Both the position numbers and the translations under genes were made by a program. Shown here one piece after another: positions 1,824 through 2,787 of a DNA stretch of 64,000 bases. The stretch spans positions 288,001 through 352,000 of the IMG/VR virus record IMGVR_UViG_3300017700_000931. One strand, 5' to 3'. The notes under the pieces are model-generated. The model had not been told where the DNA came from and did no database searches. It saw only the letters and a program-made list of their open reading frames with translations. Positions within the stretch are counted from its first letter, which is position 1. Each line of letters starts with the position of its first letter. This DNA is from a virus (Duplodnaviria; Caudoviricetes).

Positions 1824-1953
1824 TGGTGTGCCACAAGGGAATCGAACCCCACACTTTCCCAGAACAACGCTCCGTCGAGCCTTTCATCAGGTTACCCCGT
1901 ATATTATTGTTTTAACATAGCTGTCCGGCCCACTAAAACTCAATATGCAGCAC
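1824..1953 (-). ncRNA. tRNA-like RNA, 130 nt, encoded CCA, multi-hairpin insert replacing the anticodon loop
   Basis: Acceptor GTGCTGC/GTGGCAC-A-CCA; T-loop GG-TTCGATT-CC; long stem CCGGACAGC/GTTGTTCTGG enclosing small hairpins; D-arm weak. Confidence 0.5.
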
Positions 1954-1957
1954 AAGT

Positions 1958-2082
1958 AAAAGATTGGTTCCCATTAAAAGTATCCATCAGCTCAACAAAG
2001 GGCCTCGTGTCCCAAAAAAGCAGATACTCCGTTCTTTATTTCTTTATTTTATTTGCTTGATTCGGTAAGGAACCAATCTTTT
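1958..2082 (-). ncRNA. 125-nt structured RNA domain
   Basis: Perfect 14-bp closing helix AAAAGATTGGTTCC/GGAACCAATCTTTT; inner AGTATC/GATACT and GGG/CCC stems; no ORF. Confidence 0.5.
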
Positions 2083-2083
2083 G

Positions 2084-2184
2084 TGGGCGCAGAGGGATTC
2101 GAACCCCCATCACTCTCATAGAAGTTGGACCAGTTGCAACTGGTTTTCCCCCTCAAGTCGACATCCCCTTAGTCGCACACGCCC
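2084..2184 (-). ncRNA. tRNA-like RNA, 101 nt, elongated anticodon arm
   Basis: Acceptor GGGCGTG/TGCGCCC-A; D-arm CGAC-TAAGGGGAT-GTCG; T-arm GGGGG-TTCGAAT-CCCTC; central arm capped by ACCAGT-TGCA-ACTGGT; no 7-nt anticodon loop. Confidence 0.7.
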
Positions 2185-2190
2185 AAATTA

Positions 2191-2671
2191 AAAAATAATG
2201 ACACCCATTTCTAAGTGGAATGATTAGCAAGGCATCAAACATCCAAGCACCCTATTTAGTTATCTCTATGGTAACGTTTTAATCATCTTACAATAAACAA
2301 CATCACCTTAGCGTGATTATAACGAATGGATTTGGGCCTTTAATGTCAGTCGCACGACGTGTTATATCCTCACCACTCCAATTCCGTACCCCCTAACTCA
2401 GATATACACCTGCTGACCATTACGTTTAACAGGGTCGCCAATTTCGGCTTAATTTTCATCTGAGGATTGGTTGCATCTATTGTTTGTTACTGCTTATCTT
2501 CAGTAGTCATTATTTTTATGAGTGAGTATGACGTATGCCGTCCTTTGGATTTACCCGCAGACCAACGGTTCTCTCACCCATGTTTTTATAAAAATAGAAT
2601 CACTTTCATAATCAGGACCATTTTTATTCGGTGTGCCTCACCAACATGATTACTAATCACTATCTATTTTT
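2191..2671 (-). ncRNA. Large multi-domain structured RNA (~480 nt; GOLLD/ROOL-class candidate, identity unverified)
   Basis: Three closed domains: 9-bp helix 2590-2598/2663-2671, 8-bp helix 2519-2526/2573-2580, perfect 12-bp helix 2191-2202/2506-2517; many internal hairpins; no credible ORF; flanked by tRNA-like modules. Confidence 0.65.
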
Positions 2672-2688
2672 CAATACTTCAAAGAACT
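2671..2688 (-). promoter_or_regulatory. boxA-like antitermination element
   Basis: AGTTCTTTGAAGTATTGA resembles rrn-type boxA (GTTCTTTG...) and sits directly after a tRNA-like module, as in rRNA spacers. Confidence 0.45.
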
Positions 2689-2697
2689 ATTCTATTG

Positions 2698-2787
2698 TGG
2701 CGATACTGTGAATCTAACACAGTTTTGCAAAAATTACAGAATCAGTATCTGTGTCATCTAGCCGTCCTAACATTAGACGATACCGCC
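2698..2787 (-). ncRNA. tRNA-like RNA, 90 nt, elongated anticodon arm, variant elbow
   Basis: Acceptor GGCGGTA/TATCGCC-A; D-arm GTCT-AATGTTA-GGAC; T-arm CTGTG-TTAGATT-CACAG; central ACAGA-TACTGAT-TCTGT hairpin on an extended stem. Confidence 0.65.

Follow-up and report, generated by a model that had tools for sequence, protein, structure and literature searches.

Three tRNA-shaped units, an rRNA-type boxA and large folded RNA domains in a gene-free island of a Bacteroidota jumbo phage genome

The genome studied here is that of a giant (jumbo) phage infecting Bacteroidota. We have analyzed a stretch of 64,000 nt, the window, which corresponds to positions 288,001 to 352,000 of IMG/VR record IMGVR_UViG_3300017700_000931. 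A gene-free island of about 1 kb is found on its minus strand, at 1824-2787. The island and its flanks are described in Table 1. Under table 11, its sole ORF has 60 amino acids, starts with TTG and lies on the plus strand. Alternative genetic codes (code 4, TAG=Q, TAA=Q) yield no credible frame and are rejected as a reading: the stop-to-stop frames are mostly short, on the wrong strand, or cross the tRNA-like arms, and the two longest code 4 frames have no match in Pfam or PHROGs. The claim of the first-pass annotation that the island is non-coding holds under all four codes, and the tiling described there is also correct: the whole stretch is covered by closed RNA modules. Its G+C content is 40-45%, versus 32.7% for the genome, and remains high along the full kilobase. 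The Rfam and tRNA-finder searches proposed in that annotation have been run: Rfam gives no real match on the island, either at the gathering threshold or at E<=10 (a scan covering 1400-3300), and ARAGORN does not call anything there. Iterons or an origin of replication may be rejected, since direct repeats are absent from the region.

Table 1. Features of the island and its flanks, in the order of transcription of the minus strand. Coordinates are those of the window.
Feature	Position	Strand	Basis or remarks
Bacteroidetes-type promoter (TTTG, 20 nt, TAnnTTTG)	3294-3325	minus	pattern and PWM
Small ORF, 64 aa	3082-3276	minus	ORF list
Small ORF, 62 aa	2793-2981	minus	ORF list
tRNA-like unit 1 (90 nt, including A73)	2698-2787	minus	shell finder, constrained fold
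boxA 20-mer	2668-2687	minus	identity with Bacteroidota rrn boxA
Structured RNA, about 480 nt, three closed domains	2191-2671	minus	folding
Domain D1 (82 nt)	2590-2671	minus	folding
Domain D2 (64 nt)	2518-2581	minus	folding
Domain D3 (327 nt)	2191-2517	minus	closed by perfect 12-bp inverted repeat
tRNA-like unit 2 (101 nt)	2084-2184	minus	shell finder, constrained fold
Hairpin domain, about 125 nt	1954-2083	minus	inverted repeat and fold
tRNA-like unit 3 (130 nt)	1824-1953	minus	shell finder, constrained fold
Downstream stretch	1580-1823	minus	74-aa GTG ORF; AU-rich hairpin 1586-1632 and U6 run at its end
Free-standing HNH endonuclease	958-1335	minus	Pfam HNH
HNH-like zinc finger fused to Rnl2-type RNA ligase	977 to beyond window start	minus	Pfam RNA_ligase

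About 500 nt upstream of the island there is a promoter (3325-3294) which fits the extended consensus of the phage itself. The window contains 19 copies of the promoter pattern, where 4.4 would be expected. With a PWM derived from 57 genome-wide sites, this promoter scores 36.4, where the maximum is 37.2, and it is the only minus-strand match above 12 in window positions 1-4300. Transcription of the unit probably starts here. A scan for sigma-70 promoters is uninformative (12 found, 16.9 expected). The two small ORFs which follow have no significant match in Pfam or PHROGs, the best PHROGs E-value being 0.006, for the 64-aa ORF. The stop codon of the 62-aa ORF ends 5 nt ahead of unit 1. The locus had been described as a non-coding operon. 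This holds for the island, but the operon probably begins about 500 nt upstream, with the two small ORFs, so it is not purely non-coding.

On the other side of the island, the 74-aa GTG ORF has no homologues and belongs to no protein family. The hairpin and U6 run at the end of this stretch are a possible terminator, although the call is weak. No canonical G+C-rich intrinsic terminator is found on the minus strand in 900-4300; under looser criteria there are weak hairpin-plus-U sites near 2736, 2198, 1588 and 1391, and the one near 1588 is taken as the possible end. We have also considered 1575-1823 as a pseudoknotted RNA, which finds no support (fold z -0.94 versus shuffles, not significant). 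Then come the HNH and HNH-Rnl2 ligase genes. They had been noticed previously on the same strand, and their identity is confirmed by Pfam and by motifs: the translation of the fusion contains CxxC..HH..N..CxxHH, as well as KMDG. This kind of fusion is already known in jumbo phages (PMC7824862). The phage also encodes a CCA-adding enzyme, at genome positions 59889-60254.

Three of the modules in the island have the shape of a tRNA. Our shell finder, which looks for a 7-bp acceptor, a T arm and the T-loop consensus, detects them on the minus strand, at 2699-2787, 2085-2184 and 1828-1953. Shuffles of the entire 362-kb strand give about 3 shells, that is about 0.01 expected per 964 nt; three in 964 nt is far above chance. 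In units 1 and 2 the stems are completely paired (acceptor 7/7, D 4/4, T 5/5). Unit 3 has an acceptor of 7/7 (8 counting A8-U) and a T stem of 4/5. The D arms of units 1 and 2 have 4-bp stems, while the D region of unit 3 is weak. All three units have A73. An encoded CCA is only found in unit 3, units 1 and 2 have a CAA trailer. A T (U in RNA) is present at -1 in every case. The 57 real tRNAs of the phage share these U-1, A73 and C74 end signals: C74 is present in 53 of them, and an A73-CAA trailer like that of units 1 and 2 in 28. The end signatures of the units are the same as those of the real tRNAs, which fits the previous claim that they could be recognized by RNase P and the tRNA 3' processing enzymes.

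The differences with normal tRNAs are found in the central region. Unit 1 has a Glu/Gln-type D arm, similar to that of the phage tRNA-Glu minus one G, a UUAGAUU T-loop, and an elongated central arm topped by a 5-bp/7-nt hairpin. Its D-loop, as read from the sequence, is short by one G, and there is an A at T-loop position 56; these changes would be consistent with a U19-A56 pair in place of G19-C56. Unit 2 has a canonical acceptor, D arm (with GG in the loop) and T arm, and its 3' 20-mer is shared with tRNA-Val(UAC) genes, which are widespread and end in the same sequence. At the position of the anticodon arm it has a rod of about 14 bp with a palindromic 4-nt loop at its tip. Unit 3, with a 4-bp T stem and a canonical T-loop, has a branched central domain of about 80 nt where a tRNA would have its anticodon arm. 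All three units were said to lack a 5-bp/7-nt anticodon arm. This is correct for units 2 and 3. Unit 1 does have such a hairpin, but it is displaced, stacked on about 5 extra bp, and has an A at the position of U33. The units are nevertheless tRNA-shaped and non-decoding, as proposed, with intact acceptor and T arms and an unusable anticodon arm. When compared with canonical tRNA (RF00005), all of them agree in the acceptor, T arm and discriminator, while for the anticodon arm neither ARAGORN (with or without introns) nor Rfam at E<=10 calls any of the three.

Other tRNA-type genes of this phage also escape detection. At least 11 further uncalled shells are found elsewhere in the genome, within its tRNA arrays. 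The conservation of one of them in a distant relative (G003) shows that shells of this type can be kept. A considerable fraction of the tRNA-type genes of this genome, at least 14 shells and the tmRNA, is missed by the standard finders. The phage encodes SmpB and ARAGORN finds no tmRNA, which led us to consider the island as a tmRNA gene. This is ruled out: Rfam places the phage tmRNA at genome positions 73052-73434 (89.7 bits). In the island, RF00023 only gives a 17-nt match to the T arm (E 0.14), none of the three units has G3-U70, and the ARAGORN tmRNA scan finds nothing, even with 75% thresholds. A Y RNA or YrlA is also rejected: the ends of the units are found at the acceptor stem, not in a Ro-binding stem, and there is no Rfam match. 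No TROVE (Ro) gene is found in the phage genome.

It is very improbable that the units are decoding tRNAs with short introns, which a phage nuclease would remove and the neighboring ligase would seal. There is a precedent in the Lak megaphages, huge phages of Prevotella, whose enlarged pseudo-tRNAs have been read as intron-bearing and which have highly expressed large intergenic regions (bioRxiv 10.1101/356790). Our phage is similar to them: it is huge, has a host of the Bacteroidales type, and contains long non-coding regions and oversized tRNA-like genes which the standard finders miss. A nuclease-ligase fusion gene is found downstream of the island, and an intron frame may be drawn in unit 1, with the loop AUGACA, a 19-nt insert and then U (anticodon GAC). 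Nevertheless, ARAGORN calls none of the units when introns are allowed. We have run every single deletion of the central regions through ARAGORN, which accepts 2 variants of unit 1, 12 of unit 2 and 0 of unit 3; in no accepted variant does the deletion fall at 37/38, the canonical position. Simple intron removal, which does not restore a plausible decoding tRNA, is rejected by this test. The Lak elements are read as introns in decoding tRNAs, while our units have no plausible restoring exon junction. The palindromic loop which caps unit 2 also argues against introns, and HNH enzymes are, to our knowledge, DNA nucleases.

Unit 1 is followed by the boxA, which starts 10 nt past it and has a 4-nt overlap with the first stem of the next domain. 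The previous identification of this motif was right: the same 20 nt make up the boxA present in the spacers and leaders of Bacteroidota rrn operons. In L106 and L116 the identical 20-mer follows the second spacer tRNA and precedes 23S. In L098, as read from the sequence, it immediately precedes the 16S 5' start motif GAGTTTGAT. A total of 15 IMG/VR contigs contain it, following -7 promoter boxes or tRNAs. Both its sequence, identical to that of the host clade, and its position, with a tRNA-like unit before and a long untranslated RNA after, are those of an rrn-type boxA. Two of the tRNA arrays of the phage also have boxA-like variants, 22-23 nt upstream of the first tRNA. The 10-mer boxA core is not enriched genome-wide (3 copies, 1.1 expected). 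In the relative G003 the motif is also found after terminator hairpins, where it could belong to a promoter.

The rest of the island corresponds to folded RNA. The structured RNA of about 480 nt belongs to no Rfam family at E<=10. The domain of about 125 nt exactly occupies the spacer between units 2 and 3, and is closed by a perfect 14-bp inverted repeat (1958-1971 / 2069-2082). No second copy of it has been found in the genome. The closing helices of D3 and of this domain stop 4-6 nt short of the next unit. Their fold z-scores are -2.69 for D3, for which 0 of 100 shuffles are as good, and -3.52 for the 125-nt domain; the whole 510 nt gives -2.23. Among the units, unit 1 has a z-score of -3.13. 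Units 2 (-1.9) and 3 (-1.0), when folded without constraints, are not significantly better than shuffles.

With the exception of boxA, we have not detected homologues of these modules in 45 phage records, IMG/VR or JGI metagenomes. BLAST and nhmmer searches over 26 loci anchored on the ligase do not find the island. The same searches over the whole records of 10 relatives give nothing beyond boxA, the only part of the island which BLAST recovers; in three complete relatives, only about 1-4 kb of DNA can be aligned to this genome. Synteny around the ligase is not kept, even at 81% protein identity. Loci anchored on the opposite-side gene, or on the upstream 62-aa ORF, also lack an island homologue. 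Exact words from units 1, 2 and 3 find no homologue in IMG/VR, nor does a word from D3 in the JGI metagenomes, and a unit 2 word only matches ordinary tRNA-Val and tRNA-Lys genes in metagenomes. Single-sequence covariance models of units 2 and 3 recover only ordinary tRNAs from the 45 other phage records; the best other match of the unit 3 model is the tRNA-Ala of the phage itself, with 21 bits. Since homologues have been detected for boxA only, selection on the folds is argued from single sequences only.

These results might suggest that the units are decaying tRNA copies, and the rest a structured leader or spacer with a boxA which lets transcription reach the HNH and ligase genes, with no stable functional RNA. 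The weak z-scores of units 2 and 3 point in this direction, as do the lack of homologues anywhere, the generic tRNA-Val 3' end of unit 2 and the high turnover of tRNA genes suggested by the other uncalled shells in the tRNA arrays. We consider this quite unlikely. The acceptor, D and T stems are still paired, with their processing signatures retained, and the arms which replace the anticodon arm are long stable helices, not random sequence. Also against decay are the spacers closed by perfect 12- and 14-bp stems, the G+C content elevated over the whole kilobase, and the conservation of an uncalled shell in a relative as distant as G003.

The anatomy of the island, the identity of its boxA, the promoter and the end signals shared with real tRNAs are established. 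The likeliest reading, towards which we lean, is that the locus produces one long Nus-protected non-coding transcript, which is cut by tRNA-processing enzymes into stable pieces; we infer its transcription, Nus dependence and cleavage sites as follows. Transcription would start at the host-type promoter and go through the two small ORFs and unit 1 to boxA. There, as in rRNA operons, the transcript would draw in the host NusB/NusE anti-termination machinery, whose binding is predicted. This would allow RNA polymerase to continue through about 1 kb of highly folded RNA which is not translated, and to escape premature termination, for example Rho-dependent. The units have lost the anticodon arm, but would retain the features recognized by RNase P, the 3' processing enzymes and the CCA-adding enzyme of the phage, which are U at -1, a 7-bp acceptor stacked on the T arm, A73 and C74; with these features, they would be excised like tRNAs. 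The same cuts would free the intervening folded RNAs (D1-D3 and the 125-nt hairpin), with ends shielded by their terminal helices, which lie next to the cut sites. The end products would be stable RNAs of the same kind as T5 RNA1/2/3 and T4 rnaC.

In this locus, tRNA shapes which do not decode are found together with large closed RNA domains and with an anti-termination signal borrowed from host rRNA. This combination suggests a maturation pathway which can be tested, with Nus-dependent transcription first and then cleavage by RNase P and RNase Z. If this pathway is true, phage tRNA look-alikes would in part be punctuation for RNA processing, and not broken genes. The boxA could in that case also be used to search for undiscovered non-coding RNA operons in Bacteroidota phages.

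The tRNA-shaped RNAs might, on the other hand, be effectors themselves: mimics which bind or titrate acceptor-end toxins, modification enzymes, synthetases or defence nucleases. The HNH-Rnl2 ligase would then be part of the same tRNA-conflict module, and the large RNAs separate passengers. The determinants of the L-shape are intact while decoding is lost, and the possible U19-A56 pair of unit 1 would also point to selection on shape. The RNA ligase, from a family common to many jumbo phages, is on the same strand, with no strong promoter between. Jumbo phages are known to combine tRNAs and RNA repair enzymes against anticodon nucleases (PMC7824862). This explanation seems unlikely to us. It leaves out boxA and the tight tiling with closed spacer RNAs. 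The anticodon loop, which known anticodon nucleases recognize as their target, is missing from the units. In 26 relatives, no RNA of this type is found in synteny with the ligase, and there is no Ro/TROVE partner in the phage genome. For the units as decoys for host tRNA-targeting defences, also proposed in the first-pass annotation, we find no specific support.

RNAs of this kind are not new. The closest known cases are the tRNA-like stable RNAs of T4 and T5, annotated for decades without a function. The island resembles them in architecture and tiling, in a class which is defined by design, without sequence homology. T5 (NC_005859) has RNA1 (144 nt), RNA2 (125 nt) and RNA3 (73 nt), annotated as "tRNA-like stable RNA with unknown functions", and also RNAI, RNAIII, RNAIV and RNA2H. 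Like our units, RNA1 and RNA2 have D and T arms and an acceptor-type closure, with a large insert in place of the anticodon arm. T5 tiles tRNAs, tRNA-like and non-tRNA-like stable RNAs head to tail, with gaps of 0-4 nt (tRNA-His, RNAIII, RNAI, RNA1), and its cluster contains HNH endonuclease genes, as does the neighborhood of the island. Nevertheless, there is no sequence similarity to the units, no annotated boxA and no RNA of 327-480 nt. The host of T5 is enterobacterial, and its stable RNAs have been seen, whereas those of the island are only predicted.

In T4 (NC_000866), rnaC (species 1, 139 nt) and rnaD (species 2, 119 nt) are found at the end of the tRNA cluster. Like the units, rnaC has paired ends, a canonical T arm (CCGGG-UUCGAAU-CCCGG) near its 3' end and a large central domain. 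The order is tRNA-Arg, rnaD, rnaC, with rnaC behind tRNA-Arg and 1-6 nt from its neighbors. The homing endonuclease gene segB belongs to the same cluster. Homology with the island is not detected, and T4 has one tRNA-like RNA instead of three, without boxA or a large RNA.

Animal mitochondrial tRNA punctuation and the MALAT1 mascRNA are related cases of tRNA-like cleavage signals. In plant mitochondria, RNase P and RNase Z cut long transcripts at the t-elements, which are non-canonical tRNA-like folds (PMC1920247). As we propose for the phage, tRNA-like folds set the ends of neighboring RNAs in all these systems. They differ in being organellar or nuclear and in releasing mRNAs or lncRNAs; cleavage has been mapped there, and would be expected in the island.

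The spacer of rRNA operons offers another comparison. It has the identical boxA 20-mer, in the order tRNA(-like), boxA, large structured untranslated RNA, as in L106 and L116. The RNA downstream of boxA in the island differs from them in not being rRNA (no LSU or SSU match at E<=10), and Nus binding is predicted. Tentatively, the locus might be a phage-built imitation of an rRNA operon spacer. The RNA of 480 nt, or its core of 327 nt, would then be a large phage RNA of a new class, synthesized with the help of hijacked Nus anti-termination, and tRNA-processing enzymes would make its ends by cutting dedicated tRNA mimics which do not decode; we put this forward as a possibility. The order of the imitation is: tRNA-like gene, host boxA, large RNA, tRNA-like gene, RNA, and tRNA-like gene with CCA. 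If true, it would be the counterpart in a bacterial virus of mitochondrial tRNA punctuation and t-elements.

GOLLD (RF02032) and ROOL, whose function is equally unexplained, are also large folded phage RNAs, frequently located beside tRNAs. They have conserved "ornate" folds, while the island is known from a single sequence without homologues. Their models do not match 1400-3300 at E<=10, and the same tool gives 302 bits for the true GOLLD in another phage contig with a boxA (L080). In this contig, GOLLD and a tmRNA are found within about 4 kb of the boxA island. Layouts similar to ours are present in L080, L081 and L090: a promoter or tRNA is followed by boxA, a hairpin and long uncalled tRNA-like shells.

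The region at 1824-2787 (minus strand) is a real, non-coding feature. In agreement with the first-pass annotation, it contains no notable ORF under table 11. No credible frame appears when the sequence is read with code 4, TAG=Q or TAA=Q; the longest two of code 4 belong to the opposite strand, and neither has a Pfam or PHROGs match. G+C climbs to 40-45% across the island, compared with 32.7% for the genome. Two of the searches recommended in that annotation call nothing here: ARAGORN finds no tRNA within the region, and no Rfam family is found over it, even at E<=10.

We have used a custom finder of tRNA-shaped sequences (shells), which requires a 7-bp acceptor, a T stem closed by G53-C61 and the T-loop consensus. 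With it, most real phage tRNAs of the minus strand are retrieved; the plus strand gives almost no hits, and shuffled sequence about three shells per 362 kb. Within the island the finder reports three, all with intact tRNA-body helices, which bears out the three modules proposed earlier. They had been described as lacking a 5-bp/7-nt anticodon arm. This holds for unit 2, where a 14-bp rod with a four-base cap replaces the anticodon arm between canonical D and T arms, and for unit 3, where the centre is a branched 80-nt domain, the acceptor and T helices are arranged as 8+4 and CCA is encoded. Unit 1 does carry such a hairpin, pushed outward by about five extra pairs. Its D arm is almost the same as that of the phage tRNA-Glu, with one G missing from the D-loop. 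T-loop position 56 is A instead of C, and the elbow pair would be kept as U19-A56. The proposed tiling by structured modules is also confirmed: closed domains of 82, 64, 327 and about 125 nt are found between the units, the last two with perfect closing stems of 12 and 14 bp, respectively.

Location of the island and of other features (G000:C1, whole phage genome; L, individual contigs; G001 and G003, genomes of relatives)
Feature	Position	Strand	Remarks
Unit 1	window 2699-2787	minus	shell
Unit 2	window 2085-2184	minus	shell
Unit 3	window 1828-1953	minus	shell
boxA 20-mer	window 2687-2668	minus	10 nt past unit 1
Upstream promoter	window 3325-3294	minus
AU-rich hairpin and U6 run	window 1632-1580		possible transcript end
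HNH-Rnl2 RNA ligase gene	window 1-977	minus	runs past window start
Phage promoters	window 10825-10856, 12181-12212, 14653-14684	plus	consensus matches, among 19 window sites
DUF805b RNA motif	window 11909-11944	plus
SmpB gene	window 35728-36156	minus
CCA-adding enzyme gene	genome 59889-60254
tmRNA	G000:C1:73052-73434	minus	outside window
SRP RNA match	G000:C1:24793-24898	minus	L068 494-599
Ten uncalled shells, 66-121 nt	genome 70418-70511, 56714-56789, 56623-56711, 55697-55772, 25621-25741, 25351-25440, 24684-24792, 15762-15828, 15599-15671, 15045-15110	minus	intact acceptor and T arms; not called by ARAGORN
Eleventh uncalled shell	genome 73056-73163	minus	3' part of tmRNA; not called by ARAGORN
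Counterpart of shell 15045-15110	G003 115510-115581
Similar ORF-poor island	G001 30400-34200
boxA-led islands	L080 1562-2260, 5032-6211; L081 7156-8100
Split tRNA gene	L187 170-708
boxA-like motif, examples	G003 154006, 155092, 155369, 139760	minus	loose matches

Oversized pseudo-tRNAs of Lak megaphages, which also have highly expressed long intergenic regions, have been read as intron-bearing (bioRxiv 10.1101/356790). The same reading of our units is highly improbable, and simple-intron tRNAs were rejected: ARAGORN calls none of the three when introns are allowed. When every possible single deletion in the central regions was tried, a handful were accepted, none of them in unit 3 and none removing a segment at the canonical position.

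The 57 tRNA genes found by ARAGORN in the whole genome are all but one on the minus strand, 54 of them between 9 and 73 kb. C74 is present in 53, the exact trailer CAA follows the discriminator in 28, and CCA is encoded in only three, a pattern which fits 3' maturation reliant on the CCA-adding enzyme encoded by the phage. A73 is followed by CAA in units 1 and 2 (probability by chance about 0.02 per unit) and by CCA in unit 3, and T is found at -1 in all three. The closing stems of the 327-nt and 125-nt domains stop 4-6 nt short of the next unit, and the 125-nt domain starts within the CAA trailer of unit 2. From this anatomy we infer that, if RNase P cut at +1 and the 3' processing enzyme after N73, the RNAs set free would have helical, protected ends.

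Classically, boxA, the NusB/NusE anti-termination site, is located in the rrn leader or spacer. The 20-mer which follows unit 1, previously noted as boxA-like, is also present in Bacteroidota genomes. An identical sequence is found in two Flavobacteriales rrn operons (L106, L116) between the second spacer tRNA and 23S, 16 nt ahead of 23S, and in a Bacteroidales MAG (L098) shortly ahead of the 16S 5' start motif. By its sequence it is an rrn-type boxA, and a candidate NusB/NusE site. In 15 IMG/VR contigs it is located some 20-40 nt past a Bacteroidetes -7 box or immediately after a tRNA, followed by ORF-free, folded sequence with further uncalled tRNA-like shells. Close variants are found in this genome 22-23 nt ahead of the first tRNA in two tRNA arrays. 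Decaying tRNA genes, with a boxA leader serving the downstream genes, would be another explanation of the island; we consider it quite unlikely.

The sole strong minus-strand promoter upstream of the island scores 36.4 with the phage's own promoter matrix, whose maximum is 37.2. A consensus scan of the minus strand from 900 to 4300 gives no canonical G+C-rich intrinsic terminator; under lenient hairpin-plus-U criteria there are weak sites at about 2736, 2198, 1588 and 1391. The simplest reading is a single transcript. It would include the promoter, two small ORFs, unit 1, boxA, the 82-, 64- and 327-nt domains, unit 2, the hairpin domain and unit 3, and may continue by read-through into the HNH and HNH-Rnl2 ligase genes. 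In the best-supported mechanism, which has somewhat better than even chances in our estimate, the non-coding transcript would be Nus-protected, and tRNA-processing enzymes would mature it at three non-decoding tRNA mimics. That these mimics act instead as effectors in tRNA conflicts appears unlikely.

Several precedents allow us to consider the island as a variant of an already known kind of RNA. In T5, three RNAs are annotated as tRNA-like stable RNAs of unknown function: RNA1 (144 nt), RNA2 (125 nt) and RNA3 (73 nt). They belong to a tiled array, with gaps of 0-4 nt, that also contains tRNAs and further stable RNAs, and HNH genes lie alongside. In the folds of RNA1 and RNA2, the ends are closed by an acceptor stem, D and T arms are present, and a large insert occupies the centre. 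T4 rnaC, which follows tRNA-Arg and rnaD and has a homing endonuclease gene as neighbour, is built on the same plan. In plant mitochondria, the degenerate tRNA shapes of t-elements can act as RNase P/RNase Z signals which set the ends of neighbouring RNAs (PMC1920247). The ligase has an N-terminal HNH-like zinc-finger set (CxxC, HH, N, CxxHH) and an Rnl2-type domain (KMDG). This fusion is conserved at full length (residues 7-323) in the best of the listed matches from jumbo phages, among them RsoM2USA, SCTP-2 and the Caulobacter phages; Lak phages also match. It has already been described in jumbo phages (PMC7824862). What is new is the combination of such RNAs with an exact host rrn boxA and a closed RNA of 327-480 nt, in a Bacteroidota jumbo phage.

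The phage genome (362,532 bp), of which the window covers positions 288001-352000, has direct terminal repeats. Its promoter consensus, approximately TTTGGTAGAaccAAATaattgTATTATcTTTG, is an extended Bacteroidetes -33/-7 promoter, with 57 sites genome-wide at a fixed 20-nt spacing. The Bacteroidetes-type promoter TTTG-N20-TAnnTTTG is found 19 times in the window (4.4 expected), so the host is very probably a member of Bacteroidota. A near-threshold match to the Bacteroidales small SRP RNA (52.1 bits, gathering score 55.2, E 1e-8), directly adjoining an uncalled 109-nt shell, suggests that the phage encodes an SRP RNA and has a host in the Bacteroidales. The window also contains a DUF805b RNA motif (Rfam, 41.7 bits, gathering score 35.6).

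The phage has a real tmRNA (RF00023, 89.7 bits, E 1e-34) with a G3-U70 acceptor. ARAGORN overlooks it by default and, with introns allowed, miscalls part of it as a tRNA-Ile with a 139-nt intron. The gene for SmpB, the protein partner of tmRNA, is about 250 kb away (PF01668, 181 bits). The island itself is not a tmRNA: no unit has G3-U70, and ARAGORN is silent there at lowered thresholds. A Y RNA module was also rejected, since the genome has no TROVE gene and both ends of the RNA lie at the acceptor stem. GOLLD and ROOL give no match at the island, although the identical search detects a true GOLLD (302 bits) in L080, which also has a tmRNA.

The first-pass annotation had called for homologous loci from related phages. 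None is found in 26 ligase-anchored loci (48-81% identity), which have neither synteny nor DNA in common with the RNA region, or when covariance models of units 2 and 3 are run on 45 other records. Nor do nhmmer or searches for exact words in IMG/VR and JGI metagenomes give a homologue, and BLAST over ten whole relatives gives only T-arm words and the boxA segment. Conservation and covariation are thus not demonstrable. The visible relatives are distant, the three fetched whole aligning with the 362-kb genome over about 1-4 kb, so that either may still exist.

The theme recurs at the level of design. There are at least 11 further uncalled shells in the genome, one with a clear counterpart in G003. 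The G001 island (IMGVR_UViG_3300037280_000106) has three, of 68, 70 and 134 nt, one of them with a UUAGAUU T-loop as in unit 1; it also has a boxA after tRNA-Ile and several tRNA-like genes to which ARAGORN gives 2-nt anticodons. Shells of 89-131 nt are found inside boxA-led islands in L080, L081 and L090. In L080 and L081, IMG/VR phage contigs which have a conserved folded RNA in common, a promoter or tRNA is followed by the same boxA, a hairpin of about 100 nt and long uncalled shells.

In L187, a Bacteroidota-type metagenome contig, a tRNA gene (GGGCGCA...TGCGCCCA) seems to be interrupted by some 430 nt of inserted sequence, which contains a tRNA-Val and an ORF and probably comes from an integrated element. 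In G003 (IMGVR_UViG_3300029288_000066), a loose boxA-like motif is found 33 times, where about 10 would be expected, with most copies on the minus strand; it lies either 5-12 nt past the last tRNA of a cluster or directly after terminator hairpins. It is often accompanied by GTGGCAAT...TACTTCG about 25 nt further on, and in this phage may belong to a longer promoter or leader signal.
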